IMG/VR virus record: IMGVR_UViG_3300048583_000179
Span: 1 to 63,447 of that record
DNA: 63,447 nucleotides
Origin: a virus
Taxonomy: Duplodnaviria; Caudoviricetes
Strand: one strand, 5' to 3'
A program made the translations under genes and the position numbers. Under the pieces are notes generated by a model. The model searched no databases. It was not told the origin of the DNA and worked only from the letters and a program-made list of their open reading frames with translations. Shown in pieces: positions 6,899 through 54,472 of this stretch (within the stretch, counting starts at the first letter, position 1; each line of letters begins with the position of its first letter).

Positions 6899-6969
6899 CT
6901 GCCCCCCTTGGATTCGAACCAAGATTAACGGATCCAAAGTCCGCTGTCCTGCCATTGGACGAGGGGGCA
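6899..6969 (-). tRNA. tRNA-Gln(UUG)
   Basis: TGCCCCCTCGTCCAATGGCAGGACAGCGGACTTTGGATCCGTTAATCTTGGTTCGAATCCAAGGGGGGCAG folds as a cloverleaf; anticodon TTG; followed by TCA rather than CCA. Confidence 0.92.
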
Positions 6970-11367: not shown

Positions 11368-11502
11368 TCACAGCTCCTCCAGTACGGCCGACTTGACGGT
11401 CGTCACCTTCAGGAAGAACTGCTGCGCCTTGCGGGCGCGTTCAGCGGTGGGGTAAGTCAGCGGGTACGATGCGCCAGTGTAAAACGTGAGGATTAGCTTC
11501 AT
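11368..11502 (-). CDS. Small early protein (44 aa, not in ORF track)
   Basis: MKLILTFYTGASYPLTYPTAERARKAQQFF...; preceded by CTAATAGGGGGT. Confidence 0.6.
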   Translation of the reverse strand: MKLILTFYTGASYPLTYPTAERARKAQQFFLKVTTVKSAVLEEL

Positions 11503-11556
11503 TTGGCACCCCCTATTAGGACACTACCGTTTGATGGCCCCCGTTGGCCATGGTGT

Positions 11557-11585
11557 AAGGTAGCTCATCGACTAAGTCTGCGCAA
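11557..11585 (-). promoter_or_regulatory. sigma70-like early promoter TTGCGC-N17-TACCTT
   Basis: Repeated family; -35 box lies in one arm of the 11580-11626 inverted repeat. Confidence 0.7.
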
Positions 11586-11626
11586 GGGGTACGGAAAAGG
11601 TACTTCTCTTTCCGTACCCCTTGCGC
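11580..11626. repeat. 18-bp perfect inverted repeat
   Basis: GCGCAAGGGGTACGGAAA-N11-TTTCCGTACCCCTTGCGC. Confidence 0.85.
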
Positions 11627-11730
11627 TCATTAACGCCCTTTCTCGTACCGGGGGTGACTAAGATGTTGGCTCTTCTTAAAGACTTGCTTACGGCTCTTTA
11701 TCAAGTATCGGGTTTTCAGTGTCATCTACC

Positions 11731-11818
11731 TATTGGCTATTGCCCCTATATAGGGTTACTATAACCGATCAAAATGTTTTCTAAAAAATTCGGAATGTGC
11801 CAATAGGGGTAATAGGGT
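11731..11818. repeat. AT-rich duplicated element, copy 1 (candidate replication origin)
   Basis: CCTATATAGGGTTACTATAACCGATCAAAA (11745-11774) is identical to 38675-38704; flanked by TATTGG/CCAATA. Confidence 0.7.
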
Positions 11819-12051
11819 AGAGGGGTAACTGGGAGTACTGTAAAGGGTTACGATGCGTATTGGAGATAGGTACAGTGATAATGCTCTACCGATAATGGGG
11901 TAATAACACTGAAGGACCGCGAGCGGGATCAGGGTTCGTAGTGTTGTTATATCAGTGTCTAGAACGTATATTAGGTCGCAGTTATCGGGACGGCCCGGGC
12001 ATCGCCGCGAGGTGAAGACGACCTTGACCTTGCACACACGTAGAGGTAACA

Positions 12052-12468
12052 ATGCGTGAGCATGCCATTTTGGCACGGTATGCCAAGCAGGCAGCCGACC
12101 TGCCAATCCTGTTGCACCGGATAGAGAACCGAGTTCACAAGGGAACACCCGACTACCTCTGGACTTCTCAGGGGTTCACAGCGTTCCTTGAAATGAAGAG
12201 CTACGATACGGGTCACTGGGTGTCACCCGAGCAGGCGATCTTCATGAGAAAGTGGACTGAAGCAGGAGGGCATGCCGGAGTATTGGCAAGCGGGAGAAGT
12301 CTGGAGTGGGACTACTACCCTGCCTTGGCCGACCACAGTTGGGTAAAGAAGATCCAAGATCGCAAAATCGCTCCAGCCTTCAGCTTTCCGGTCTTCAACT
12401 ACTCGGCTCTTCTCCAGATTATCGCTCTTCACCGTGAGCTCGTTCCTACAATCTCTGGGTCTCCCTAA
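12052..12468 (+). CDS. VRR-NUC / PD-(D/E)XK nuclease (resolvase-like)
   Basis: RIENRVHKGTPD...AFLEMK...SPEQAIF..KW..AGG. Confidence 0.8.
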   Translation: MREHAILARYAKQAADLPILLHRIENRVHKGTPDYLWTSQGFTAFLEMKSYDTGHWVSPEQAIFMRKWTEAGGHAGVLASGRSLEWDYYPALADHSWVKKIQDRKIAPAFSFPVFNYSALLQIIALHRELVPTISGSP

Positions 12469-12580
12469 TCAGGTCTCCCCAATCAACTCCGAGAAGACGA
12501 CTCCAAGACGCGTAACCGCGTTCCAAATCTGGATTTCTCGTAGTACAGGTTGGGGAAGAATTGAACTCGCCTAGGGGAAT

Positions 12581-12604
12581 GAAACAGGGGGCCGAAGCCC
12601 CCTG
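12581..12604 (-). terminator. Intrinsic terminator after the 12625-13023 gene
   Basis: CAGGGGGC-TTCG-GCCCCCTG-TTTC on the minus strand. Confidence 0.75.
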
Positions 12605-12624
12605 CGTCATCCACCCCTTTGTCC

Positions 12625-13023
12625 TCAGGCCGGAGTGGCAGCCTCCACCGCCTTGGCCTTCGCGGCAGCCGCCGCCTCGCGCCGCTCCGCGAGGATGGCC
12701 GCGCAGCCGGGGCACCACGCCTCAGCCGCCTCGTGGCCCGGGATCGCCCCGCCCGGCGCGTAGGCCGCGTCCTTGGCCTCCTTCCGGCTGTTGAAGTGGG
12801 CGACAGTGCCGTGCGCCTCGCAGATGTTGACGAACGTGGTGCCCGGCGCGATGGGGCGGTAGCTGTTGATGCGAACGCCCGTGCTGCGGTTGACGCGCGA
12901 CCGGAACCTGTTGTGCGAGCCGCACGCCTCGGGGTCGGTGAGGACCCGCTCGGCGGGCGCGACGGTGGTCACCGGGGTCTCGGTGGTGGTTTCCGTCGCG
13001 GTGGTCTTCTGCTTCTTCGACAT
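12625..13023 (-). CDS. Zn-finger-like early protein, normally encoded paralog of 16294-16761
   Basis: Thr-rich N-tail, VNICEAHG...YAPGG...AWCPGCA; highly GC3-biased codons; own promoter and terminator. Confidence 0.8.
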   Translation of the reverse strand: MSKKQKTTATETTTETPVTTVAPAERVLTDPEACGSHNRFRSRVNRSTGVRINSYRPIAPGTTFVNICEAHGTVAHFNSRKEAKDAAYAPGGAIPGHEAAEAWCPGCAAILAERREAAAAAKAKAVEAATPA

Positions 13024-13078
13024 AGTGTACCCCCCCTGTTAGTGTGAGCCGCCCAGCGTCGTGCTGTAGCGTACACCA

Positions 13079-13107
13079 ATAATACTTCAACGCCACGTCG
13101 GACGCAA
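13079..13107 (-). promoter_or_regulatory. sigma70-like promoter TTGCGT-N17-TATTAT
   Basis: Near consensus; upstream of CTAACAGGGGGGGTAC leader. Confidence 0.75.
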
Positions 13108-13386
13108 TACCCGTTGAGGTCTTGTTACAGTTTGCCCCGGACTAAGTCTGCCCTCCACTTCTAGCAATCTCCGCGGGTGCGTGTTCTTATAATCGCTGCG
13201 GGCTCGCGCTCATATTGTCGCCTCTTCCTCGTGCTCTAGACTTCTCCTTCTAGATTTCTCACCCGGTGGCTCCGGCCAGCCCGAGTGCGGGGAGAACGAG
13301 ATAACGACAAGGCCCGACCGAGACCGAGAAAGGGCTAACAGGCTACGCCGAAGTGAGAAAGTGCTACGCTGATGAATACTGGGGGC

Positions 13387-13415
13387 TGGCGTGACGAATG
13401 GGTGGGGGCTATATT
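13387..13415 (+). promoter_or_regulatory. sigma70-like promoter TGGCGT-N17-TATATT
   Basis: Shares CTGGCGTGACGA...GCTATATT with the 43313-43341 promoter; followed by GTGCGC hairpin and leader. Confidence 0.7.
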
Positions 13416-13458
13416 GGGGGGTGCGCACCAACGCGCACCACACTAACAGGGGGTAGGT

Positions 13459-13824
13459 ATGTACGTGCCAACCTTGCAAAACAACGCCGTGCCGTGGCAG
13501 GTGCAGGTAGTGGCCATGGTGCCCAACAGCACCCCCGTTGCCCTACTGGGCAACTTGCAGCATGCCATGTATGCTGCCGCTGCCCCGTGGCACGGTAGCA
13601 TGGTGGCCAGTGTGGGCAACGCCACGGGGGAAAATGGGTGGTTGGAAGTTGCGTTTACCGCCCACATGCACCCCGCCTACATGCTGGTGGACAATGCGCA
13701 AGCGGTTACCCCCCGGCTAGTGCAACAGGGCGGGGAAATACTGGCGCAGTGGGTGGGGCACCTACATGCCATGCTGCCGGGGGCCGTGCTGTACCAAGCC
13801 AAGTTGGAAAACCCCAACTACTAG
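13459..13824 (+). CDS. Hypothetical immediate-early protein encoded in TC-free DNA
   Basis: CTAACAGGGGGT leader; zero TC and only 5 GA, all starting Asp/Glu codons. Confidence 0.8.
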   Translation: MYVPTLQNNAVPWQVQVVAMVPNSTPVALLGNLQHAMYAAAAPWHGSMVASVGNATGENGWLEVAFTAHMHPAYMLVDNAQAVTPRLVQQGGEILAQWVGHLHAMLPGAVLYQAKLENPNY

Positions 13825-13871
13825 GGGTAACCGGGTGGGGGGTAACCCCCACCCACCATACAGGGGGTACA

Positions 13872-14171
13872 ATGGAAGAAGCAACAGGGTGGTTGGTCTC
13901 AGTTACCATGCCGTACAGCCTAACTGAAGACAGGCACGTACAGGCTCTTCAAACCCTCACCAATTTCACTTCGCACATGCCAGACTTCTCCGAGGGAGAC
14001 GGGGGCACAAGCAGCGAAGAAGGGCGGGGCATGGTGTACGTGGAAGAAGTGTACAGCACCAGTCTCGGCCACGCCATGCAGTACCTCCAGCTCGCCCTGT
14101 CTCTGGGGGCGTACTGCGGGGATGTGGTGCCAGCCCGTATCGACGAAGAAGGGATACCCGTGGAGATGTAG
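13872..14171 (+). CDS. Small acidic early protein
   Basis: ATG after CATACAGGGGGTAC; MEEATGW...; no Lys, many Asp/Glu. Confidence 0.75.
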   Translation: MEEATGWLVSVTMPYSLTEDRHVQALQTLTNFTSHMPDFSEGDGGTSSEEGRGMVYVEEVYSTSLGHAMQYLQLALSLGAYCGDVVPARIDEEGIPVEM

Positions 14172-14276
14172 CGGGGGCGGGGCGAGAGCTCTCGCCCCGC
14201 CCCTTAGTAGGTGGGTACGAGAAAGGGCGATTGTTCTCTGGAGATGACCACTCCCCATCAAGACTTCTCAAGCCAC

Positions 14277-14305
14277 TTGCGTGGCGACTCAACGGGTGCT
14301 AGCTT
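14277..14305 (+). promoter_or_regulatory. sigma70-like promoter TTGCGT-N17-TAGCTT
   Basis: Repeated family; spacer contains GACTCAA. Confidence 0.7.
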
Positions 14306-14349
14306 ACAGTGTAGGGTAGTACAGCGATTCCAACCTAATAGGGGGTACC

Positions 14350-14628
14350 ATGCGCGAACCGGCCTACCTGTACCTGCAACTCTCGCCCAAGCCGGGCACC
14401 ACCGCAGAAGAAATTATTGCCTACTGGCAGCGGTTGGATTCCCTCGCGGTTACCATGTGCGGCGAAGGTGCGCAGCAGCACATGGCCAATTGGACGAACC
14501 ACGGCTACCTTGATTTTTGGGTGGCCCACCCCAACAGCGATACTTTGGGCCGGTTGAAAGCGGCATGGTTGGCCGTGCCCGCACCCGGCGAAACCGGGGC
14601 AGTAGTAGACGAAGGCGAAGGCGACTAA
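14350..14628 (+). CDS. Small acidic early protein
   Basis: CTAATAGGGGGTAC leader; own promoter. Confidence 0.75.
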   Translation: MREPAYLYLQLSPKPGTTAEEIIAYWQRLDSLAVTMCGEGAQQHMANWTNHGYLDFWVAHPNSDTLGRLKAAWLAVPAPGETGAVVDEGEGD

Positions 14629-14724
14629 TAGCAAACACCGGGGCGGCAGTTCTCGCCCCGGTAGGTGCCCACAGGGCGAGAAGTCTAGACCCCATCAGGC
14701 CCGATCGCGACTTCTCCGAGCCCC

Positions 14725-14753
14725 TTGTGTGCGGACTCAACGCGAGGTATTAT
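14725..14753 (+). promoter_or_regulatory. sigma70-like promoter TTGTGT-N17-TATTAT
   Basis: Repeated family; spacer contains GACTCAA. Confidence 0.7.
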
Positions 14754-14797
14754 ACAGGGTAGGCAATAGGCAACATCCTCACCTAACAGGGGGCACC

Positions 14798-15076
14798 ATG
14801 CCAGTCATCACTTTACCACAGGCCAAGTACACAACGTTCTACTTGGACAACGCAAGAGATTACACGTTGGACGAGTTTGCCCGTGTGGCCGCAGAGCACG
14901 AGATCCTGTGCGGCTACCTGCCGTGGGCCACGCCCGACGAGGACTTGGGCACCGTGGGAGAGTACTGGTTCCTCACGTTTACCAAGGCCCAACAGGCAGT
15001 GGTGGACGGGATGAACGGGTACCCCAGTGTCCTCGACTGGGTGACGGACGAGGGACCGTTTGACCTAAACATGTAG
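14798..15076 (+). CDS. Small acidic, aromatic-rich early protein
   Basis: Start re-called after CTAACAGGGGGC; MPVITLPQAKY... Confidence 0.75.
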   Translation: MPVITLPQAKYTTFYLDNARDYTLDEFARVAAEHEILCGYLPWATPDEDLGTVGEYWFLTFTKAQQAVVDGMNGYPSVLDWVTDEGPFDLNM

Positions 15077-15229
15077 GACTCGTGGGCGGGTGGGGGCTCG
15101 TGCCCTCGCCTCGCCGGTGTGTTCTTCAGAGAAAGGGTGACTGTGAGCTCCTGCCCTGAGCTCCTGTTCAAGACTTCTCGCCCCTGTGCTCCGGCGAAGA
15201 GCGCCGACTCACGCCGGCGCTGCTGACTC

Positions 15230-15394
15230 TTACTGCCGCCTCTTCGCCCGCTCTACCTGCCGACGGAGGTTGCGGAGGGTGGGGCTGACGTGATCCGACG
15301 GAGGCATGCGCAGTGCCCAGAAGACCATGCCGTAGTACAGGATGACTGCGAGCACGATGCCGAGCACCACGCGAATGTTGATGTCGTTGACCAT
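15230..15394 (-). CDS. Small single-TM protein (54 aa, not in ORF track)
   Basis: MVNDINIRVVLGIVLAVILYYGMVFWALR...; CTAACAGGAG leader. Confidence 0.65.
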   Translation of the reverse strand: MVNDINIRVVLGIVLAVILYYGMVFWALRMPPSDHVSPTLRNLRRQVERAKRRQ

Positions 15395-15447
15395 GGGGTG
15401 GATCTCCTGTTAGTGGTGGGGGGCTTGCGCCCCCCGGTTGATGGCGA

Positions 15448-15762
15448 CTACTGCGGGCCGTAGAAGCCGCGCAGCACGAGGTCCTGGTACCGCAGGGTGT
15501 ACGGCAGCTGAACGAGCTGGGTAATGGGACCGGTGATCCCCTTGTACGGGCGCACCCACAGGGTCTCACCGAGCAGTTCGTTGCCCCGGTATTCCTGCAG
15601 CGACACCCACAGCCCGTGACCGGGGTAGGTTTCGTCGCCGCTGAACCCCGCCACGCCCACCCAGTTCGCGCCCGCATGCACGGTGGTAATGCCCGTCATC
15701 TTGAACGCGGTGCGGGCTTCCTCGTCGGCTGCCAACAGCCTTGCCACCTTCACCTGTGCCAT
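15448..15762 (-). CDS. Hypothetical early protein
   Basis: CTAACAGGGGGTAC leader; own promoter. Confidence 0.75.
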   Translation of the reverse strand: MAQVKVARLLAADEEARTAFKMTGITTVHAGANWVGVAGFSGDETYPGHGLWVSLQEYRGNELLGETLWVRPYKGITGPITQLVQLPYTLRYQDLVLRGFYGPQ

Positions 15763-15803
15763 ACCGTACCCCCTGTTAGAGCGGCCCTTATTGGCCGCAC
15801 CTA

Positions 15804-15832
15804 AGTATACCTCGCATTGAGTCGTCGCGCCA
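15804..15832 (-). promoter_or_regulatory. sigma70-like promoter TGGCGC-N17-TATACT
   Basis: Repeated family; spacer contains GACTCAA; GCGGCC hairpin follows. Confidence 0.7.
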
Positions 15833-16098
15833 GTAGGCAGTTATCCTCCTGCAATCGCCCCTCCACGAAGCTCAACATCTCGGGTCAGGCGGTGACGACA
15901 GCCGGATGCGTGTCCTGCAATCTCTGCTCGGCCGAGCTCAAATCTAGATGTCTCGCTCCGGCGACATCGGGATCGGTCTCGGTCACACTATCTCGCCCGG
16001 TGGCGCTACAATCGCTGGACTCCATCGTTCAATTCCTCGTCATCTAACTCTCGCGTTCTCCCCTGTGGCGCGGGCGCAACACCCTGCTGTTGGGCGCA

Positions 16099-16185
16099 CG
16101 CCACATGTGGCGTGCCCGCTACGGTGCCAGGGCCACATGTGGCGCGGGTGCAACAAGCGGGTGTTGGGCGCACGCCACATGTGGC
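16099..16185. repeat. Three copies of the palindrome GCCACATGTGGC
   Basis: 16100-16111, 16132-16143, 16174-16185; copies 1 and 3 lie in a 24-bp direct repeat. Confidence 0.9.
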
Positions 16186-16206
16186 ACGCACGCACACCAC
16201 GGGGCA

Positions 16207-16278
16207 TAGCAAGGCCCGTGCCCCCTTGCGGGCACGGGCCTTGCTACCTGCCGCCCCCCGCCCCTTGCGGCGGGGGGC
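16207..16278 (-). terminator. Two tandem GC-rich hairpins (GCAAGG loops) downstream of 16294-16761
   Basis: 17-bp stem at 16207-16246 and 10-bp stem at 16253-16278; no U-tract. Confidence 0.55.
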
Positions 16279-16293
16279 TTTGCTACCGGGCTG

Positions 16294-16761
16294 CTAGGCC
16301 AGTGGTACGGCCCCGTGGGCTAGGGGGTTGGTGGCCCCTGCCGTGGCGGGGTTGGTGGCCACCACATGCGCTGCGCACCCCGCACACCATGCGGCGGGCG
16401 CGCCCGGTGCCTTGCCACTGGGGCCGCCCGGCACATACACCCCCTGCTTGGCGGTGCCCCGCGTAAGGTACCCCACGGCGTACCCGTGGGTGCCGCACAC
16501 GTTTACCCACAGGGGGCTGCCACCAAACGGGCGCAACATGTAAATGGTGGCGCCCGTTTGCTGGCACTTGCGCACCGGGCGGGCAGTGGCGGGCATGCCC
16601 TTGCCCGTGGCCAGTGCGGCGGCAACCGTGGCCAACTGGGTAGCCGTGGGGGTGCTTGTGGTGGCCGTGGGGGCGGTTGCCGCCACTGGGGCCGGGGTTG
16701 CCACTGGGGTGGCCGTGGGGGCGGCAGGGGCCGCCGTGGGGGTGCTGCGCTGCTTGGCCAT
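16294..16761 (-). CDS. Asp/Glu-free Zn-finger-like immediate-early protein
   Basis: 155 aa with no D or E; VNVCGTHG...YVPGG...AWCAGCA; own promoter and CTAATAGGTAGGT leader. Confidence 0.82.
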   Translation of the reverse strand: MAKQRSTPTAAPAAPTATPVATPAPVAATAPTATTSTPTATQLATVAAALATGKGMPATARPVRKCQQTGATIYMLRPFGGSPLWVNVCGTHGYAVGYLTRGTAKQGVYVPGGPSGKAPGAPAAWCAGCAAHVVATNPATAGATNPLAHGAVPLA

Positions 16762-16803
16762 GTGTACCTACCTATTAGGGCGGGCGGCATTGCCCGCACC
16801 CCC

Positions 16804-16831
16804 AAGTTAACCCATTTGCAACACTACGCAA
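16804..16831 (-). promoter_or_regulatory. sigma70-like promoter TTGCGT-N16-TAACTT
   Basis: Repeated family; lies inside the TC/GA-free island. Confidence 0.6.
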
Positions 16832-17031
16832 GGGGTGCGGCGGCACCCCCCAGTTACCCCACCCCCCACCCCCAAAAACGCGGCCCGCCCGCCCGCTGCC
16901 AGTCAGACCCAGCCCATGCGCCGATTTGAAAAATCCAACCCCAAAGCCCGCATGACGATGTTCATTGGTCTATAAAGATAAACGGGAGCCCCAGAATCAG
17001 GGCTCCCCGATTTTCTACGAGAGTTTAGGTA

Positions 17032-17289
17032 CTACATTCGTGAGGCGAGCCAGACATTGTACAAGGCCCGAGCGATTCCGGTCACCAGTGCGTAGCCGAC
17101 AGTTAGGCCCGCACCGAGCACTACCGATATCGTAAAGAGCGCGAGGTTCGAGGCAACCACGGACGGCTTCCCCGCATCCGACAAAGTGCGAGCCTTCTTG
17201 ATAAGGTCTTGAAACTCCGTGTCGTTCATGTGTCGCTCCACGATGTGAAGGTGCCCCTGCGCATCAATGCGATAGCTATTCAGCTGCAT
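17032..17289 (-). CDS. Small membrane protein
   Basis: MQLNSYRID... with C-terminal hydrophobic helix. Confidence 0.55.
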   Translation of the reverse strand: MQLNSYRIDAQGHLHIVERHMNDTEFQDLIKKARTLSDAGKPSVVASNLALFTISVVLGAGLTVGYALVTGIARALYNVWLASRM

Positions 17290-17491
17290 AGAGGATTTCC
17301 TGGAGGGCGCGGTGCAAGTCCCCCAGAAGCTCATCCCGCTTCACCGGGGCACGGTTCACTAGGACGAAGGCTTGCGTCCGCTGATGCTTGGGCAGTGCAG
17401 CGACGATCAAGGGAAGCATCAATGCAACGGCTTTCCCGAAGTCTTTTCCACCAAGCTTCTCAGCCTCTTTGTACCCCGCCATGAAATCCAA
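17276..17491 (-). CDS. Hypothetical protein
   Basis: 71-aa ORF divergent from terS. Confidence 0.5.
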   Translation of the reverse strand: MDFMAGYKEAEKLGGKDFGKAVALMLPLIVAALPKHQRTQAFVLVNRAPVKRDELLGDLHRALQEILYAAE

Positions 17492-17564
17492 GAGCTTCTC
17501 CGGTAAGGGTTACCCCCAATATAGGCGTCTTGCCTCACGAGCGACAGGGTGTGTAGTTTGTAGC

Positions 17565-18407
17565 ATGCCCGACGAAAGTTCACTTATGCCGTATGGTGGC
17601 GACAACCCCTGTGGGGCGCAGGTTCGTAGCAACGACGCGAAGTACGACGTCTGTATGATGCCCGCCGGATATCGCACGGATCACGTAGGCGAAGGTCGCT
17701 GCTACCTTCACGGGGGTAATGCCCTCGTAAAGAGTGGCAGGTACAGCAAGATCCTCAAGGTGGAACTGCAGGAAGCGATTGAGCGGCATGCGAATGATCC
17801 GGACGTGCTCAACATGGAGCCGGAACTCGCCACGGCGCGAGCGCTGTTCGAAGACTTCATTAATCGGTACGACGAGAACTCGGAAGCGCTCCTCGCATGG
17901 CATCTCAGCTATAAAGACGTCCAGATCACACCCGAGCGGCACAAGCTCATTCAGTTCATCATAAAAGCCGCCGAACAGCACTTCGCGGACCTCGCAGGTC
18001 AAGGCGAGGAGGTCGAGGAGTGGAAAAAGGTGTGGCTGAAGGAAGCCAAGACGCTCGCGTACAAAATCGGCGAAAGTTTGTCGGAGAACCGCAAGCCTCC
18101 ATACATCATGGACATCGCCGACGGGTACAAGTTCTTGGCCGAAATCACCAAGATCGTCGAAAGGATTGAAAAGGTACGGGCGCAGAACGCCATTAGTCGA
18201 CGGAACTTCTTGCGGGTTATGAGCGAAATGGGCCGCGTCACCAACACGGTACTCGACGTCGCGGGCGGCTCCCTGCATGCGTTTGACGCCGACGGAAATC
18301 CTATTACGGTGTACGATTCTGAAGGTCGGCAGGTCAACTTCGTCGAAGTCTTCGAACGAGCGAAGGCTCGTATCCAGGATCAATGGCTGACGATCCGCGT
18401 CGAGTAA
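17565..18407 (+). CDS. Terminase small subunit (HGG Zn-motif type)
   Basis: PCGA...CMMPAGYRTDHVGEGRCYLHGG...SGRYSK; directly upstream of TerL; start re-called at ATG 17565. Confidence 0.7.
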   Translation: MPDESSLMPYGGDNPCGAQVRSNDAKYDVCMMPAGYRTDHVGEGRCYLHGGNALVKSGRYSKILKVELQEAIERHANDPDVLNMEPELATARALFEDFINRYDENSEALLAWHLSYKDVQITPERHKLIQFIIKAAEQHFADLAGQGEEVEEWKKVWLKEAKTLAYKIGESLSENRKPPYIMDIADGYKFLAEITKIVERIEKVRAQNAISRRNFLRVMSEMGRVTNTVLDVAGGSLHAFDADGNPITVYDSEGRQVNFVEVFERAKARIQDQWLTIRVE

Positions 18408-18709
18408 TGGGCCTCCCCGAACGGGTTAGCATCAATAAGAACAGCCCGTTCTATTTGCACGACATCCACATGATGTGGATCTATTTGAACGACGTGTTGG
18501 TGTCGGGGGTAGTCGAAGCCAATCGGCCGATGGGGTGGCTCATCAAGTACGAAACCGACGATCAAAATAGGTTGGTGCGCGACGCGAAGGGCAACCCCTG
18601 CCTCCGTCTCCTGCGGGGGAGGGTAGAGTTCAAGGTCAAGGTCTTCGCGCACGATCATCCAAAGGTATTCTTTAGTGACTACGCTCAAGGATCTACTAGG
18701 CAAGAATAA
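18407..18709 (+). CDS. Hypothetical protein
   Basis: ATG overlaps the terS stop. Confidence 0.6.
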   Translation: MGLPERVSINKNSPFYLHDIHMMWIYLNDVLVSGVVEANRPMGWLIKYETDDQNRLVRDAKGNPCLRLLRGRVEFKVKVFAHDHPKVFFSDYAQGSTRQE

Positions 18710-20234
18710 GCTTGGTAGTGAAAAGACGATGGTCGAGGGCGTGGCCGAGGCAATGCGCCAAGTTCGGTCACCCGGTCGTACGGATGGCGATCCAGGGGCC
18801 GACAGACCGCTCACGTTCATTGAGTTCGTCAATAAAGTGAATCCTCGGTTCGTGTGGCACAAGCACAACATCAAACTCGCCAACGTATTGCAGAAGGCAA
18901 TTGATGGGGGGTTCGGTCCACGGGCGCGCATTATGATCTGCATGCCGCCCCGTCATGGTAAGACGGAGGAAGTCAGTAAGCTTTTCGCCGGGTATTGGCT
19001 CTATCGGTACCCCGACGAGTGGGTGGGCCTCAGCACCTATGTCGCTGAGCTCAGCGCGGCGATCTCCAGCACGGCACAGGAATACTACGTCAAGGCGGAC
19101 GGCAAGCTGGACGAAAGTCATACCGCCTCTCGGCACTGGCAGACCTCATCTGGTGGCGGCATGTGGGCGGCGGGCGTCGGCGGTCCAATCACTGGTAAGG
19201 GCTTCAATCTTGGCATTATCGACGACCCGATCAAAAACGCCGAGGAAAGCAACTCGGAAACGATCGGTCAGCGCAATCAGGAATGGTATCAGTCAACGTT
19301 CTACACGCGCGAAGCGTTTAGCCATACCTGTATCATCGTGATGAATACCCGGTGGCCGGGGCCGGGCGACATCATTGGCTGGCTGTTCGAAAACGAGGAG
19401 CAAGCCATTATCGACGAAATGGTGGACGATGCCGAAAAGTGGCATTGTGTCATTCTACCTGCCATTTACGATCCGGACCAGTTCCCGACCCTACCAAGCA
19501 CCTGTACGCTAGAGCCCGACTGGCGTAAGCCGGGCGAGGCGCTCTTTCCCGAGCGGTACGGCACCGATCGGTTGCGCAAGATCAAACGGACACAGGGTAC
19601 GTATTACTGGGCCTCACTGTATCAGCAGAACCCGACGGACCGCGAAGGTCACCGCTTCAAGCGCATCTGGTTTCAAAACAAGTTTGTGGATCGGGCACCC
19701 GAAAGCTTCAGTAAGGATATCGCGTACTTTGACCACGGGGGCGGCGAAAACCGCGACAACGATCCCACGGTTGGCGTGCGCATGCGGCGGGTGAGTAGCA
19801 CCGAGTATTATATTGTAGACGTCGTTCGCAGAAAGCTGTCGCCAGAAAAGCGGGATCAGTTCATTCGGCAGACGGCCGAGCGGTGGGGCAAGAAGGTCAC
19901 CTACTGGGGGATGCAGGAAGGTGGCAGTGCGGGTAAGGATCAGGCGAGAACCTTCCGTGCGCTGCTTGAAGGGTTTGAGGTTTATACGGAACGGGTCACT
20001 GGGGAAAAGGATATCCGTGGCGATCCGTTCCAAGCGGCGTGCGAGGCAGGGTTTATTCATCTTGTGCGCGGGCCGTGGAATACTGAGTTCCTTGATGAGC
20101 TGGTAACCTTGTGGACAGGAAAACACGACGATCAGGGGGAGTGCGCGGCTGGAGCATACAACAAGCTGTCATTCCTATATCGCCGTAAGCGGAAGCCGCC
20201 CGGTAGTCGTAGCTACTCAACACTTGGGCACTGA
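18675..20234 (+). CDS. terL: Terminase large subunit
   Basis: Walker A MPPRHGKT, GIIDDPIKN, MNTRW, YQQNP, C-terminal GKHDDQ nuclease motif. Confidence 0.95.
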   Translation: MTTLKDLLGKNKLGSEKTMVEGVAEAMRQVRSPGRTDGDPGADRPLTFIEFVNKVNPRFVWHKHNIKLANVLQKAIDGGFGPRARIMICMPPRHGKTEEVSKLFAGYWLYRYPDEWVGLSTYVAELSAAISSTAQEYYVKADGKLDESHTASRHWQTSSGGGMWAAGVGGPITGKGFNLGIIDDPIKNAEESNSETIGQRNQEWYQSTFYTREAFSHTCIIVMNTRWPGPGDIIGWLFENEEQAIIDEMVDDAEKWHCVILPAIYDPDQFPTLPSTCTLEPDWRKPGEALFPERYGTDRLRKIKRTQGTYYWASLYQQNPTDREGHRFKRIWFQNKFVDRAPESFSKDIAYFDHGGGENRDNDPTVGVRMRRVSSTEYYIVDVVRRKLSPEKRDQFIRQTAERWGKKVTYWGMQEGGSAGKDQARTFRALLEGFEVYTERVTGEKDIRGDPFQAACEAGFIHLVRGPWNTEFLDELVTLWTGKHDDQGECAAGAYNKLSFLYRRKRKPPGSRSYSTLGH

Positions 20235-43502: not shown

Positions 43503-43901
43503 CTATTGGGTTTTATGAGCCCCAGTGGGGTCGTCATGCGGATCTCCCTCGTAGAGTGGGCTGACTTCTTCAAGAGGGAACGGATCTTGGATCGCGAGGA
43601 TGCCTTGCGCATATGCTTCTGCCTCAATCAAGATAAGGTAGCGTCGCAGGTCGCGAATGCTTTCAATGGCTGACTCCCCACCTTCGTCAACCCGTGCAAT
43701 AGCCTTGAACACGTCGTACCCGCATGCCTTGGCCTGTTCCTCAAGCCTGTCGGCCTTACGAATACTGACCATGAAGGCACCCGGCCCACCCCGCTTTTTC
43801 CAACTTGCACCATAGGCGATATCTTTGGCAAGGACGGCTTCCGCATCAGCCTCTGCCACCATGCGGATGAAGTCGCGGTAGCTTGTGTCGTTGTTGTCCA
43901 C
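43503..43901 (-). CDS. Nucleotide-modification-associated MazG-like protein (Nmad1/DUF1599-like)
   Basis: KDIAYGASWKKRG...RKADRL...ESIRDLRRYLILIE; adjacent to the synthase. Confidence 0.7.
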   Translation of the reverse strand: MDNNDTSYRDFIRMVAEADAEAVLAKDIAYGASWKKRGGPGAFMVSIRKADRLEEQAKACGYDVFKAIARVDEGGESAIESIRDLRRYLILIEAEAYAQGILAIQDPFPLEEVSPLYEGDPHDDPTGAHKTQ

Positions 43902-44905
43902 TAGACCTCCTTCCAGGTACGCCGCTCAAGCCATTCCACGCACGCCTTGCGCCAGTCCTCGGCGCGGCACTCCTCAGCGGCAATGATGGCAAGTCCCTTG
44001 TTGCCTTGCTTGTAGAACTCCCAACTGTCAAACAGCGGGGTCACCACATACTGAAAGTACGGGGTTTGATAGTCCTCAGTGGGGTTGATGCCCTGTGCCT
44101 CGTTGGTAAATTCGCGCAGGTCGCGATCCCACTGGGCCTGAGTAACGTCGCCTGTGAATAGGGGGTAGGGGCGCACCAAGCCATTCTCATACGGGTCAAC
44201 ACGGAAAGACCCATGCTGAACAACGTTGTCCAGCTCATGCTTTTCCCAGACGTCCGTGTAGGCGTGGAAGTTGCCGCTCACCTGCTCGTACCACCCCACC
44301 TCGGCCTGAACGCACCCCGCCACATACTCTTGGATAACGCTGAAGTGAACTGCATTGGCCCCGAACGTGCCCCAAATCATATCGTTGCTGCGGTTGAACA
44401 CCAACATGTTCAGGCGGTTGGCGGGGTCAACCTCTAGCTTGATGCCCACATTGCAGGGGATGTCATTGCTGTTGGCCCCTACATCCTTTGGAAAGTAGAT
44501 GGGCACGTACACCCGCCGACTGTACCTGTCCTTCTGTAGCATGGTGACGGCTTCAGCCAACATGTCGCCGCCAGTGTCACGACGCATGCGGAACCCGTAG
44601 GCACCGTAGAAGTACTCACCGTCGTCACTGTACTTGGCGATCTGGCTATTGAACTGGGCAAGCCAACGAACGTCCTTGCGCCCGGCCAAGATCCACAGGC
44701 TTTCAAACAGGTGGAAGTACGGGTTGGCATCACGGTCCTCACCGAACAGCACCCGCTCCATGGGCCGACGGTAGGTTGTCACCACGGGCTCGTTCGCCAC
44801 ATAGGCCGACCCGTTACGGGTCTTTTGAATGTAGCCGTAGTAGTGAAGCAACCGTGCTCCGAGCACGTATGCCTCGTTTACATTCCGTGCATTAATGGTG
44901 TGCAT
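43901..44905 (-). CDS. Thymidylate-synthase-fold enzyme, probable dUMP hydroxymethylase
   Basis: RDANPYFHLFE, DIPCN, NRSNDMIWG..GANAVHFS, NFHAY, as in YuA/M6-type enzymes. Confidence 0.85.
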   Translation of the reverse strand: MHTINARNVNEAYVLGARLLHYYGYIQKTRNGSAYVANEPVVTTYRRPMERVLFGEDRDANPYFHLFESLWILAGRKDVRWLAQFNSQIAKYSDDGEYFYGAYGFRMRRDTGGDMLAEAVTMLQKDRYSRRVYVPIYFPKDVGANSNDIPCNVGIKLEVDPANRLNMLVFNRSNDMIWGTFGANAVHFSVIQEYVAGCVQAEVGWYEQVSGNFHAYTDVWEKHELDNVVQHGSFRVDPYENGLVRPYPLFTGDVTQAQWDRDLREFTNEAQGINPTEDYQTPYFQYVVTPLFDSWEFYKQGNKGLAIIAAEECRAEDWRKACVEWLERRTWKEV

Positions 44906-45025: not shown

Positions 45026-45970
45026 CTAGGACGCGGCTTTCCGCCAGTCATACGTCACCTTGGGTCGCCCCTCGCCGGTTTTGGCTCGCAGGTACTTGTC
45101 AGTTTCGCACAAGCTGTGTTCAATGTCCCGCATTTCTAGAGAACCCGGAATGTGATTACCCAACGGGCTACCGACATCATTGGCCACGGCAAGCAGCCCC
45201 CGCATAAGGGCTAGGGCCGTTTGCTGTCGCAGAGGGGCATCAGCGATGCGCCCTGCCAGTCTATTTAGCCCCCGCAGTGCCCCCGGCCCGGCATTAGCCC
45301 ATGTCATGATGTCTGGAGCATTGCGAAGGTACCGTGTCCACCGAAGGTCGGTGACCACTTCGTAGGCAATGAACGGCCCGAAGCCATTGTAGTTGCGAAA
45401 CCACTTCCAGACCTGCTCCAATGAATATTGGGTGCCGCCATTCACAGCAGGGTCAAACAGTTCATCAAAGTCACGGCTTTCGCCCGCACGAGTGGCGTCC
45501 CAGATTGGCTTCAGCACATGGGTAAAGACGAAGTCTTCCTTTGGCATGCTCTTACCCCCGTTCGTAATGAGGTAGGCATTACCAAAGGTCTTCAGCCCGT
45601 TGGCCTGACGGCCCGTATAGATTGACTTCCATTGGTCGTAGTCAAACTCATCTGGCAGGGCGGTTTCGCGTAGTAGCTGACGCAGCGTACCGGGCCAATT
45701 CGTATTCCGCGCCATGGCGAGTAGAAACCACAGGTTGTGGTGCTTCGCGTAGGGCTTACGAATATTTTCTTCAATCCAGATGGTGACGGTGTCCAGCTCG
45801 CGAAACACGTTGCAGAATCTATAATCGCGGAGAATAGGGTCATCCGTCCACGGACCCGAATTCCCACTCTTCCTCCGTAGGTAGATCTTGTGCCGCTCGT
45901 TGATCCAGTAGAAGAAGGGCTCGGCGTCCAGCTCCCATTCTTCATCGTCTACTGGGATGGTTACTTTCAT
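45026..45970 (-). CDS. 5-hmdU DNA kinase helical-domain protein (aGPT-PPlase1 family)
   Basis: FFYWINERH..Y...GPWTDDPIL..YRFCNVFRELD, GFGPFIAYEVVTDL, GPGALRGL, DIEHSLCETDKY. Confidence 0.88.
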   Translation of the reverse strand: MKVTIPVDDEEWELDAEPFFYWINERHKIYLRRKSGNSGPWTDDPILRDYRFCNVFRELDTVTIWIEENIRKPYAKHHNLWFLLAMARNTNWPGTLRQLLRETALPDEFDYDQWKSIYTGRQANGLKTFGNAYLITNGGKSMPKEDFVFTHVLKPIWDATRAGESRDFDELFDPAVNGGTQYSLEQVWKWFRNYNGFGPFIAYEVVTDLRWTRYLRNAPDIMTWANAGPGALRGLNRLAGRIADAPLRQQTALALMRGLLAVANDVGSPLGNHIPGSLEMRDIEHSLCETDKYLRAKTGEGRPKVTYDWRKAAS

Positions 45971-46242
45971 ATACGAGGCTTTCTTTTAGGGGGCGTTCCA
46001 AGCTGTGTCAGCACTTCGGTCAGTACGGTCAACGCGTCTTTGTGCCGTACTCCATCAGCTACGAGGGCTTCAGTTTCCAGCCACTTTTGTTGAAACATGG
46101 CTGTCGGTATCTTAAAGAGTAGAGGCCGTACCGCATCCAAGCGAGCTTGATTGCACCGTAGACAGTTGTCCACGAGGCAATAGTCATCGCACAAGGCGTT
46201 ACGAAACGCCTCAAGGATTTGGGCCTCCAGGTCCTCTTTCAC
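45967..46242 (-). CDS. Hypothetical protein
   Basis: Coupled ORF inside the modification cluster. Confidence 0.55.
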   Translation of the reverse strand: MKEDLEAQILEAFRNALCDDYCLVDNCLRCNQARLDAVRPLLFKIPTAMFQQKWLETEALVADGVRHKDALTVLTEVLTQLGTPPKRKPRI

Positions 46243-46829
46243 AAACCGAGAAGCTCAATGGTGTGTTCCACTGCCATCTCGTGATTGATCCACACCCACG
46301 GCACCCCGTCGGCCTTGGCTTTCTGTTCGCACCGCAGGACGTCATTGTACATCTTTTCCGTGTTGTGCGTGTTGAACTGGCGGGACTTGCCCTTGTTCTC
46401 ACGGCGGTCGCCTACCCGCTGAATAGCCTTGTCAAGCGGCGTGTCCAGTGCCGCGAGTACCATGCGGCCCGGATACTCGTTCAGGGCCATATCAGCGTAC
46501 CGCTGATAAATGTGGCTAATGAGCAAGCCTTCGAACAGTACCTTGTGCCCCATGGCCCGCAGAGTGCGAACCCTGTCCTGAATGATGTCTTGTGCCCGGC
46601 CCTTCTCAGTAATGCCGTCACAGCCCCCGCAGTCGTTTTGGTAGTCGCCGACGATGGCGAGCTTGGGGGTGGCGGTCATGTACCAGTCGTACTTGATCTT
46701 CTTTTTACCTGCGCTGTTGCCGATGGCCGGAAACTCGGGCTTCATGTCAAACGCTTTGATAAGCTCCGTCATCAGCGTTGACTTGCCGCTGCCACTTGTA
46801 CCACGGATGTTGATGATGTCGTACGGCAC
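46239..46829 (-). CDS. P-loop kinase of thymidine-hypermodification clusters
   Basis: IINIRGTSGSGKST, GDY...CGGCDGI, VLFEGLLIS, LDTP...RV..RR. Confidence 0.85.
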   Translation of the reverse strand: MPYDIINIRGTSGSGKSTLMTELIKAFDMKPEFPAIGNSAGKKKIKYDWYMTATPKLAIVGDYQNDCGGCDGITEKGRAQDIIQDRVRTLRAMGHKVLFEGLLISHIYQRYADMALNEYPGRMVLAALDTPLDKAIQRVGDRRENKGKSRQFNTHNTEKMYNDVLRCEQKAKADGVPWVWINHEMAVEHTIELLGL

Positions 46830-46915
46830 GACCCCCTCCTCGTTGAATGAAGTACAGGGTGCCCCACTAGTAGAGCACCCTGCACCCGCTTCGCTCCGCC
46901 CTGATGAGGCGTGGC

Positions 46916-47704
46916 TTACTCGGCCGTGGCTTCGCCGGAGTCATCAGCACCGACAGCCGCCTTGGCCTTCTTAGCCTTCTTTGGCTTGGCAGCCTTCGGT
47001 TCCGCGCCCTCCTCGGCCTCAGCAGCCTTCGCCTTCGGCGGCTTCGGCGGCTCGGGGATCACGTGCTCCAGCGGGGCACGGAGGCCCGTGGGCAGCACGA
47101 GCTGATAGTACACCCGGCCATCCACGATGCTGGACTTGATGCCGTAGCCGTGCACCTTGTAGACGCGGCCCGACAGAGCGCGGCCCTTGCGCTCCAGCGC
47201 CGACTTCAGGTCATCCGCGAAGACACCCGCGTACAGCAGGTCGATCATGTGAGCGATCTTGCTGCCCTGCCGCGCCGCCTTGATCTGGTCCAGCGCCTTC
47301 GGCTCGATCTGCGTCAGGTGCGGGCCACGGGGCGTCGCCTCCGCGCCCTCCGCCTTCGGCTTACGGTTGCGCTTCTTCTTGCCGCCCTCTTCCACGGCCT
47401 CGGTCGCCTCGTTGCTCTCGCTTGCACTCATGTTGTACACCGCTCCGTATCCCGCCATAATGGCGTTTTCGTGTGAAGTGAACCGCTTGATCTTGATCGT
47501 GTGCGTGTGGTTGAACGCACCCAGCAGAATTGACATGGGCACTTCTTCCAAGTGCTCACGGTTACGCTGCCAGAGAATCCACCGACCCTCCTTGGGATTA
47601 TGGGTTGTGACGCGAGCGTCTGGCGGCACTCGCGTCACCCGGAACTTGCCTTCCGGGATGCGCTCAATGAGCAATGACGTGTGAGTTGCTGGATACTGAA
47701 CCAT
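46916..47704 (-). CDS. Putative DNA-binding protein with Lys/Ala-rich tail
   Basis: wHTH-like core (RQGSKIAHMIDLL...HGYGIKS); PKKAKKAK tail; CTAACAGAGGGGT leader. Confidence 0.6.
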   Translation of the reverse strand: MVQYPATHTSLLIERIPEGKFRVTRVPPDARVTTHNPKEGRWILWQRNREHLEEVPMSILLGAFNHTHTIKIKRFTSHENAIMAGYGAVYNMSASESNEATEAVEEGGKKKRNRKPKAEGAEATPRGPHLTQIEPKALDQIKAARQGSKIAHMIDLLYAGVFADDLKSALERKGRALSGRVYKVHGYGIKSSIVDGRVYYQLVLPTGLRAPLEHVIPEPPKPPKAKAAEAEEGAEPKAAKPKKAKKAKAAVGADDSGEATAE

Positions 47705-53245: not shown

Positions 53246-53809
53246 CTACTCTTCATCATCAGTGGTTGTTTGGCCCGCGACTACGGCCCGCTGCCCCACA
53301 AAGATGTGAAGCAGGTCGTGGGGCAGGTCAGCCCCGGTGGGAACGACCTTCTTAACCCATGCCTTCAGGGTAGAAGGATGAACACCTTCCTTGACGGTGG
53401 TGCGGCCTCCGCGATTTTCTGCGATGGCGGCGAGGCCCATGGCCTCCGACCGCATTTCACGGTCAAACGCTGCTTCCACCGTGTACTTGATGAGGTTACC
53501 GTGGCCGTTGTCCAACAGCCACTTCATTGCATCGGCATGGCCCGCCTTGGGAATGCGGGCGCTGACAATGTTTTCCAGGTTGACGGTGCTGCCGCCGATG
53601 GTTACCGTGTGAATGTTATCGGCAAGCATGGCCCCCGGCAGCGTCACTTCCTGTAGCTCGCGCAGCTTTGCCTTGGCTTCCTTCAGCTTGGCTTCCTGCT
53701 CGGCCACATACTGCACTCCCTTGATTACGCGCACCGCGAGATCCAGCGTCGCCTTACTGGCGTGGCCCTTGCTGTCTGCTGCGAAGTCAATCGTAGCACT
53801 GTTAGTCAT
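53246..53809 (-). CDS. Conserved replication-module protein
   Basis: WLLDNGHGNLIK...VHPSTLKAWVK motif. Confidence 0.7.
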   Translation of the reverse strand: MTNSATIDFAADSKGHASKATLDLAVRVIKGVQYVAEQEAKLKEAKAKLRELQEVTLPGAMLADNIHTVTIGGSTVNLENIVSARIPKAGHADAMKWLLDNGHGNLIKYTVEAAFDREMRSEAMGLAAIAENRGGRTTVKEGVHPSTLKAWVKKVVPTGADLPHDLLHIFVGQRAVVAGQTTTDDEE

Positions 53810-54198
53810 GATGCCGCCTGTTGAATTCCTGAGTAAATGGTCATCCAGACTGGGTTGTACTTCGCCCCGATGTCGGTACGCTGCCCGTTCGGTAGCTTAG
53901 GTCGATCGTACTTCAGCCACCGCACCCGCTGTACGCCTCGGCGTTCCAGCACGATACCTGCCATGAGGGCGGCAAGGCTGTCACCACCTGCCCACACGAG
54001 GTAGTCCACCTCGGGGTCAAACGCTTCCAACCGATCAATGACAATCTGCAAACACTTGTCCGGTCGCTGGCTTGGCGTATCGCCTGAGCGGATAACGGTT
54101 ACTACTTCACCGTATTCATCCAGCTTGTCCAGCTTGGGCGTCCGACCATTACGATCCACGGTCGGTTGTGCAATGAGGTACACCTTCGGCTTGCGCAT
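53806..54198 (-). CDS. Conserved hypothetical protein
   Basis: PKVY...EYGEV...FDPEVDYLVWAGGD...WLKYDR; start re-called. Confidence 0.65.
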   Translation of the reverse strand: MRKPKVYLIAQPTVDRNGRTPKLDKLDEYGEVVTVIRSGDTPSQRPDKCLQIVIDRLEAFDPEVDYLVWAGGDSLAALMAGIVLERRGVQRVRWLKYDRPKLPNGQRTDIGAKYNPVWMTIYSGIQQAAS

Positions 54199-54265
54199 AA
54201 CTTGTGACCCTGTTCCGGTTACTGCCGCATACAAGGTAGCACTCACCCCCCTTTCGCGTAAGGTG

Positions 54266-54472
54266 TTAGACATCACCGGGCCTCTTCTTGGCCAGTAGGT
54301 TGTCCTTGTACCACTCCAGCTTCCTTGACAACGGGTTCCATACTTGAACAGCGTCGGCAGTAAACCCGTTGATGTCTACCTGAATCCAGCCGTCCAGCCA
54401 CAACCTGTCGCCTAGCTTCATGCCGTTGCGGGCTACGAGCTCCGTCCTACCGCACTTCGGGCAATTGTTCAT
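54266..54472 (-). CDS. Hypothetical protein
   Basis: CPKC N-terminus; coupled start. Confidence 0.5.
   Translation of the reverse strand: MNNCPKCGRTELVARNGMKLGDRLWLDGWIQVDINGFTADAVQVWNPLSRKLEWYKDNLLAKKRPGDV

Follow-up and report, generated by a model that had tools for sequence, protein, structure and literature searches.

A GA/TC-free tract in a phage genome and the acid-free protein copy encoded in it

Why should a phage encode the same small protein twice and keep one of the copies altogether free of aspartate and glutamate? The question is raised by the IMG/VR record IMGVR_UViG_3300048583_000179, a complete virus record of 63,447 bp, which was analyzed over its whole length (referred to below as the window) and which belongs to a tailed phage. 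Two of its open reading frames (ORFs), here called copy A and copy B, had been paired in an original prediction made from the letters of the DNA, which ascribed the lack of acidic residues in B to a constraint acting on the DNA itself. The positions of the features discussed are collected in Table 1.

A and B are true paralogs. Both ORFs were found on the minus strand exactly where they had been placed, and composition-adjusted BLASTP aligns them with 33/92 identities (36%) at E 2e-13. In an all-against-all comparison of 15 small ORFs of the region, A and B form the sole pair below E 0.01 (E 1.6e-12); the ORF beginning at 13872 was misframed in this comparison, so its own scores are void. The substitutions quoted in the original prediction (CEAH to CGTH, KEAKD to GTAKQ and EAW to AAW) are all real in the alignment, and the CxxH...CxxC ligand set is present in both copies. 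Aspartate and glutamate together account for 13 of the 132 residues of A and for 0 of the 155 residues of B, as had been noticed. B contains neither amino acid because all codons for Asp and Glu start with GA, and the tract harboring B has no GA.

This tract, island 1, features neither GA nor TC on the plus strand and, therefore, has no GA/TC step on either strand. The expectation from base composition is 38.9 GA and 45.8 TC versus 0 and 0 observed; at the genome-wide rate (GA or TC once per 8.5 bases), about 99 such steps should fall within 844 bp. Second in length among the GA/TC-free gaps is one of 234 bp, located in a second purged tract (island 2, see below), and outside both islands the longest gap is 50 bp. 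The edges of island 1 are sharp, its adjoining flanks carrying 12–16 TC per 100 bp. The tract encloses the promoter-like element of B, its leader and coding sequence, two hairpins and an array of palindromes, so the purge reaches about 70 bp upstream of the −35 element of B and 230 bp past its stop codon. As a side observation, GA-rich or TC-rich runs adjoin both purged tracts (13200–13396 and 15900–16059).

When the B protein is re-encoded with the codon usage of the phage, 27.0±4.2 GA/TC are obtained (minimum 11 in 20,000 draws) versus 0 observed; A treated likewise yields 41.4 GA+TC versus 43 observed, so there is no avoidance in A. Since the observed counts in the gene and over the tract are all 0, the ban extends to synonymous sites, to the junctions between codons and to non-coding DNA alike. 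This demonstrates that a nucleotide rule drives the loss of acidic residues from B, the disappearance of Asp and Glu being its unavoidable consequence at the protein level. Hence the earlier proposal that a DNA-level constraint rewrote the protein is borne out by the resampling, by the purge of the non-coding parts and by the family to which the pair belongs, where 31 of 34 members contain 6–27 acidic residues. The rule is a local one: genome-wide, GA (3667 vs. 3794 expected) and TC (3789 vs. 3943 expected) reach 96–97% of expectation, i.e., there is no general depletion, and the purged genes are 2 of the 65 predicted, B and ORF 13459–13824.

The family itself, judged from its sequences, is an unnamed group of small proteins encountered solely in phage and metagenome sequences. 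An exhaustive profile search with the cores of A and B against 1.84 billion representatives returned 11 matches at E <= 1e-3, namely A itself, seven small proteins (116–142 amino acids) and three repeat-rich proteins; the latter (P0008, P0009 and P0011) were dropped as low-complexity, spurious matches. A word-based search with A retrieved only A. After further searches, the set comprises 34 distinct sequences, all annotated as “hypothetical” and none with a Pfam domain. They are hallmarked by the pattern R-x-[RK]-N-R-Q-T-G ... C-x2-H ... W-C-x-G-C. The ligand set C-x2-H...C-x2-C, claimed earlier for the pair, was detected by a regular expression in 28 of 28 family sequences, A and B included, and was recognized by eye also in P0032–P0035 and in the L005 and L006 proteins. 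A and B have no match in Pfam or PHROGs, and A, compared by tblastn with a set of 50,697 phage records, has none there either. Three viral records encode short-form members of the family, one copy per record, and none of these three records contains a GA/TC-free tract.

Since the island lacks GA, TGA cannot occur in it, and a reading frame may stay open there for no other reason. Accordingly, B might be a decaying or non-coding relic; several long overlapping ORFs exist in island 1, B is missing as a called gene from the public protein collection, and its branch is long (2.4–2.6 in the trees vs. 0.9–1.1 for A, about 2.5 times longer). This reading is nevertheless scarcely credible. At all 8 positions that do not vary among 12 aligned family sequences (B included), B has kept the invariant residue, and its N-terminus, MAKQ, is the same as that of other family members. 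In hhalign comparisons with five outside family sequences, from which A and B had been excluded, A is recognized at 99.8% (E 2.2e-29), as is B at 98.3% (E 1.2e-14), the core of B is predicted confidently, and its leader motif stands at the same distance from the gene as in the neighboring genes. The long branch fits a situation in which many positions were forced to change. The basic strand motif near the N-terminus is RVNRSTG in A and RKCQQTG in B, which replaces an N-R pair nearly invariant elsewhere, though neither residue requires a GA or TC codon. Overall, with its invariant positions, the MAKQ start and the cassette upstream, B looks functional. Its exact sequence is missing from a collection of 15 billion proteins in which both A and ORF 13459–13824 are present; evidently, B was overlooked by gene callers.

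The acid-free state recurs in the family: Asp and Glu are absent from 3 of the 34 members, i.e., B, P0012 (144 amino acids) and P0034 (160 amino acids), the latter two originating from two other metagenome sources and known here as proteins only. All three are basic, with 9–11 Lys+Arg each. The nearest relatives of P0012 and P0034 (P0007, P0032, P0033 and P0035) have 65–73% core identity to them and 9–12 acidic residues. P0012 had no match in viral contigs, and neither had the family alignment (A7) in genome contigs and viral contigs; a scan of a single metagenome found one 1-kb contig with a normal family member that is not acid-free. Tree tests reject neither the sisterhood of A and B (approximately unbiased test, p-AU 0.148) nor a single clade of B, P0012 and P0034 (p-AU 0.161). 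An insert PGG...PG before WC is common to A and B and favors their pairing; another, NGPxGGGT, favors placing P0012 and P0034 with the P0007 group. The shared inserts hint that each lineage underwent a duplication or gene conversion of its own.

This recurrence, together with the basic charge of the three proteins, could be taken as a sign of selection on the protein, either for a stronger polycation or for escape from an Asp/Glu-targeting enzyme, with the nucleotide pattern being secondary. Still, the loss of Asp and Glu does not require the loss of TC, of GA at codon junctions or of GA/TC in non-coding DNA, yet all of these stand at 0, and the unrelated ORF 13459–13824 was purged likewise. 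Selection at the protein level is, therefore, distinctly unlikely as the primary cause.

As to the nature of the protein, AlphaFold2 (AF2) models of A and B were predicted with a mean local confidence (pLDDT) of 79.7 for A (about 90 over residues 40–90) and 72.1 for B (about 87 for its core). Their elements follow in one and the same order: four strands come first, next a short helix, and then a helix starting at CxxC. According to these models, the two proteins share a core of a four-stranded sheet and a helix with disordered, Ala/Thr/Pro-rich tails. In the model of A, C68 and H71 lie between strands 64–68 and 74–77, and C104 and C107 are found at the start of helix 105–129. The Cys-x2-His...Cys-x2-Cys set is probably a zinc site. 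Foldseek searches of PDB and BFVD retrieved nothing at E <= 1e-3, and ESM Atlas and a wide VIA-align search gave no usable lead to function. In the structure comparisons, Z did not exceed 4.5, a small zinc-finger protein reaching 2.9; an AcrIF protein, an AP2 DNA-binding domain and an inhibitory subunit of methane monooxygenase (Z 4.1–4.5) were set aside as lying within the noise of the tool. The protein most likely binds nucleic acid, because of its basic charge (isoelectric point 8.8–10.1 in the long family forms), the putative zinc site and the histone-tail-like, Ala/Pro/Lys-rich ends; this is the weakest step of the argument.

Whatever B does, the purge is not a peculiarity of its gene. 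Island 2 comprises one promoter and one gene and runs to the next start codon, its TC-free stretch beginning 127 bp upstream of a −10-like element. On the plus strand, GA is absent from 13397–13629; 7 GA occur in 13397–13896, 5 of them inside ORF 13459–13824, for which the simulation yields 27.5 GA/TC versus 5 observed. This ORF has no paralog in the genome at E <= 10 and belongs to no known family in Pfam/PHROG-type searches, so the notion that every island gene has a normal twin was rejected. A 26-nucleotide G-rich, promoter-like motif is common to both islands (13399–13424 and 16843–16868, 73% complementary). A further observation is that P0038, found on a separate 1,924-bp contig, is an identical 74-residue C-terminal fragment of ORF 13459–13824.

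The strandedness of the two islands bears on two other explanations. In the first, the constraint operates on RNA, both transcripts evading an endoribonuclease with GA or UC as its cleavage site. Such a mechanism would agree with the coincidence of both tracts with transcription units and with the strand-specific character of island 2, where the sense strand has 0 UC. At the same time, island 1 is purged on its antisense strand as well, and also upstream of the point where transcription probably starts, and the TC-free stretch of island 2 sets in well before its −10-like element, the transcript ends being predicted ones; an RNA-level cause is, hence, very unlikely. In the second, the tracts avoid an enzyme attacking TC, e.g., a 5′-TC-specific cytosine deaminase or nuclease, belonging to the host or turned by the phage on the DNA of its host, to which heavily transcribed units would expose single strands. 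Some DNA deaminases do prefer TC. Island 1 is purged on both strands. In island 2, TC is missing altogether from the non-template strand, and a few sites survive on the template strand (the 7 plus-strand GA). The asymmetry of island 2 is equally explained, however, by Asp and Glu being harder to lose than TC-containing codons; the near-normal genome-wide frequencies of TC and GA reveal no general pressure, and no gene for a deaminase or TC-specific nuclease was identified among the ORFs of the window that were searched, many ORFs being left unsearched. Avoidance of a TC-attacking enzyme is thus regarded as unlikely.

The non-coding part of island 1 suggests yet another view. A palindrome of 12 bp, GCCACATGTGGC, occurs there three times in exact form and has no exact copy elsewhere in the genome. 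With up to 2 mismatches, 4 hits are found, which is at chance level (shuffle mean 4.89), so it is the clustering of the three exact copies that stands out. They lie 32 and 42 bp apart, within direct and inverted repeats of 48–56 nucleotides. The cluster is a candidate protein-binding array, e.g., an operator, an origin or a packaging site. One of the hairpins downstream of B has perfect 17-nucleotide arms (16207–16223/16230–16246), and an Rfam search of 12000–17600 gave only chance-level hairpin (miRNA) matches. Hence, B could be a passenger in a cis-acting region (an operator array, a packaging or replication site, a promoter cluster) which needs unmodified DNA, with no division of labor between A and B. 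Besides the palindromes being confined to island 1, this would be in line with the extension of the purge beyond B on both sides and with the position of the island, about 500 bp upstream of the gene preceding the large terminase. Nonetheless, the tract is 844 bp long, whereas recognition sites need tens of bases; island 2, too, coincides with a single promoter and a single gene, as far as the next start codon; and the acid-free relatives from other metagenomes suggest that the gene itself is the unit selected. A passenger role of B is for these reasons held to be unlikely as well.

A possible source of the rule is the thymidine hypermodification module, resembling that of phage M6, which the phage carries, judging by homology. 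It consists of a thymidylate-synthase homologue, an HMUDK_hel-domain protein and a P-loop kinase. The HMUDK_hel protein is 45–48% identical to M6 ORF055 and YuA gp14, and tblastn with it gave 94 phage records, in some of which proteins of this type are labeled alpha-glutamyl/putrescinyl thymine pyrophosphorylase. According to PMC5889632, conversion of 5-hydroxymethyluracil (5-hmU) is sequence-specific, and in M6 the replaced fraction of T is about 30%; in the phage studied here, T in the TC context makes up 27.8% of all T. The restriction-resistant sites of M6, ViI and phiW-14 are enriched in TG/TC, which the authors credit to the specificity of the kinase (PMC6449724). PMC6457204 reports that Escherichia coli RNA polymerase (RNAP) yields 250–350% of the normal output on 5-hmU templates, that after phosphorylation by 5-HMUDK, a kinase acting on 5-hmU in DNA, the output falls to 37% of that from unmodified DNA and 10% of that from 5-hmU DNA, and that bulky groups in the major groove inhibit transcription.

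A link from the purge to thymine hypermodification is, therefore, plausible. The explanation favored here, tentatively and at somewhat less than an even chance, is that B is the copy kept in a hypermodification-free transcription unit, a TC-free tract that escapes the phage's own modification of T. The phage would replace thymine with 5-hmU, and the M6-like module would then hypermodify a sequence-defined subset, proposed to be T in the TC context. A tract devoid of TC on both strands would stay without a bulky or charged adduct, so that host RNAP and sequence-specific binders could read it whatever the modification of the rest. B and ORF 13459–13824 would then represent modification-blind expression cassettes, and A would be the ordinary copy, with TC and GA in the promoter spacer and in its body. 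One may go further and suppose that a clade of thymine-hypermodifying phages keeps, as a bootstrap cassette, a transcription unit purged of the target dinucleotide of the kinase, the only part of an incoming hypermodified genome that host RNAP can read at once, from which an acid-free, zinc-binding DNA protein is made to open, mark or protect the genome until A and the other early genes take over. This extension is doubtful, though worth stating; if it holds, the acid-free copies found beside normal ones in other metagenomes would be an evolutionary trace of such a design.

Several points weigh against the favored explanation. The phage is uncultured, and the TC context of its modification is a proposal. 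The P-loop kinase matches HMUDK_HMUD1 at 24.0 bits, under the Pfam cut-off of 27 bits. In M6, TC and TG account for 39% and 33% of the T contexts versus about 30% of T modified, so TC is not singled out, and a dinucleotide-free tract was sought in M6 and none was found. Other genes that appear to be early, A among them, share the promoter type of B and yet abound in GA/TC; hence, modification-free DNA is not generally needed for expression. The gene of island 2 lacks a second copy, so the two-copy arrangement is not a general design. No fold or family match in Pfam, PHROGs or the structure searches provides a pointer to function.

Islands as a general trait of HMUDK phages are not borne out, M6 being the sole phage examined and having none. 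Likewise, the expected co-occurrence of the family with 5-hydroxymethyldeoxyuridine kinase genes was not seen: HMUDK_hel was found in 0 of the 3 viral records with short-form members, two of which are fragments and one of which has terminal repeats, in a search without a positive control; as far as it goes, this result speaks against a function linked to 5-hmdU kinase.

The regulatory elements of the pair belong to a local type. A and B carry the same kind of promoter-leader cassette as the neighboring genes, and an alignment with 6 neighboring upstream regions reveals that of B as a GA/TC-free version of it. This shared cassette type lends no support to the relay of the original prediction, in which a starter copy gives way to a full-strength one; neither the relay nor the suggested licensing or anti-defence factor is backed, or contradicted, by any result. 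Homologous cassettes precede at least six small genes in 13020–15860; they are composed of a TTGCGT-like element, 16–17 nucleotides, TAnnnT and then CTAAYAGGGGGTAC just before ATG, and the spacers of the neighbors often contain GACTCAA. With 3/6 and 5/6 consensus matches, the promoter-like element of A is not listed by a consensus scan, and the near-consensus promoter of the original prediction is only partly right; the UUCG terminator that it named is in place behind A (12602–12586), and the “optimised codons” come down to a third-position G+C fraction of 0.94, the highest among 85 crude ORFs.

Table 1. Positions of the features discussed, in the numbering of the window
Feature	Position	Strand	Description
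Copy A	12625–13023	minus	132 amino acids, small, basic, isoelectric point 9.0, 13 Asp+Glu; canonical family member
Promoter-like element of A	13079–13107	minus	TTGCGT, 17-nucleotide spacer with TC and GA, TATTAT; read by eye
Intrinsic-terminator-like hairpin after A	12586–12602	minus	GGGGGC-UUCG-GCCCCC, then U-rich tail
Copy B	16294–16761	minus	155 amino acids, isoelectric point 10.1, 0 Asp/Glu, CxxH...CxxC, long Thr/Ala/Pro N-terminal tail
Promoter-like element of B	16804–16831	minus	TTGCGT, 16-nucleotide spacer, TAACTT, then leader CTAATAGGTAGGTACAC-ATG
Island 1	16060–16903	both	844 bp, 0 GA and 0 TC on plus strand
Two G+C-rich hairpins	16207–16287	minus	Downstream of B, no U-run
Palindrome GCCACATGTGGC	16100, 16132, 16174 (within 16100–16185)		12 bp, three exact copies
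Island 2	13272–13896	plus	625 bp, 0 TC (26 expected)
ORF 13459–13824	13459–13824	plus	121 amino acids, 5 Asp+Glu, in island 2
Large terminase	18675–20234		Sequence match
Thymidylate-synthase homologue	43901–44905	minus	Candidate dUMP hydroxymethylase; Pfam Thymidylat_synt, E 4e-17
HMUDK_hel-domain protein	45026–45970	minus	Pfam PF18723, 165.7 bits
P-loop kinase	46239–46829	minus	Pfam HMUDK_HMUD1, 24.0 bits; AAA_18 and AAA_33 also match

Other parts of the window add some context. Within the early cluster, the plus-strand ORFs 13872–14171, 14350–14628 and 14798–15076 are very acidic (13–16% Asp+Glu) and follow one another at about 450–480 bp with repeated upstream DNA, and the motif GAGAAGTCT(A/T)GA recurs between genes of the cluster (13228–13246, 14251–14269, 14674–14689 and 15161–15183). 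Next to the modification genes, the plus strand of 46850–47459 has only one AA dinucleotide over 609 bp, which leaves gaps of 370 and 239 bp. This stretch lies within ORF 46916–47704 (262 amino acids, with a Lys/Ala/Pro-rich C-terminus and no family), from whose coding strand TT is, therefore, almost missing. In the replication arm, the minus-strand ORF 56303–60622 (1,439 amino acids) is low in Asp+Glu (6.9%), has TC in excess (z = 4.2) and finds no match in Pfam, PHROG or PDB sequences.

Besides the terminase, the genes matched in the window include those of a family-A DNA polymerase, an AEP primase and two UvrD-like helicases for replication, and of capsid protein E and a tape measure for the virion. 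A single tRNA gene, tRNA-Gln (anticodon TTG), is located at 6899–6969 on the minus strand. The record ends carry a terminal repeat of 127 bp, most simply viewed as an assembly overlap. Relatives were not detected when 11500–19000 was compared by blastn with the 50,697 phage records, and a scan of viral contigs based on the large terminase revealed no close ones. Two neighboring genes at 53246–54276 match the Pam3 gp33-like (DUF7307) and Pam3 gp32-like families, named after a cyanophage of Pseudanabaena, and one Pseudanabaena phage is also present among the HMUDK_hel matches; this may possibly hint at the host or lineage.

If true, this would be a clean case in nature of protein composition being set by a rule of DNA chemistry, a two-base ban deleting two amino acids. 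It would then be possible to tell by computation alone, from the dinucleotide locally forbidden in a genome, which sequences the DNA-modifying enzyme of a phage acts on. The finding also bears on the first expression of an incoming, heavily modified genome in hypermodified phages, and the apparent ability of a folded zinc-site domain to tolerate the loss of all acidic residues is of interest to protein engineers. Judging by the absence of B from the public collection, such genes are probably overlooked by routine gene calling.

One of the closest known systems is the avoidance of restriction sites and other short motifs by phages, which in known cases is genome-wide and concerns words of 4–6 bp. 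As in those cases, selection against a short DNA word reaches synonymous sites and non-coding DNA, overriding codon preference. In contrast, here a 2-bp step is wholly removed in two tracts of the size of a transcription unit, the rest of the genome being normal, and the ban also strips the protein of two amino acids. To our knowledge, no case of a local and complete dinucleotide ban recoding a protein has been described, and a literature search turned up no hypermodified phage described as having a dinucleotide-free tract. The A/B protein itself is reminiscent of the small zinc-binding regulators Com of phage Mu and Ogr of phage P2, being small, phage-encoded, located in an early region and endowed with four Cys/His ligands; it differs from them in ligand spacing and fold, and A and B match no named family by sequence or fold. 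The likeness to hypermodification phages of the M6/YuA type resides in the thymidylate-synthase homologue, the HMUDK_hel protein and the P-loop kinase, the difference being that M6 has neither a dinucleotide-free tract nor a homologue of A or B. Finally, the ON/OFF switching of transcription described in PMC6457204 was achieved in vitro on an artificial template with all T replaced, with E. coli RNAP and the Pveg promoter, and not with natural hypermodified bases; still, it provides a physical reason why a unit escaping phosphorylation or hypermodification would be transcribed better.

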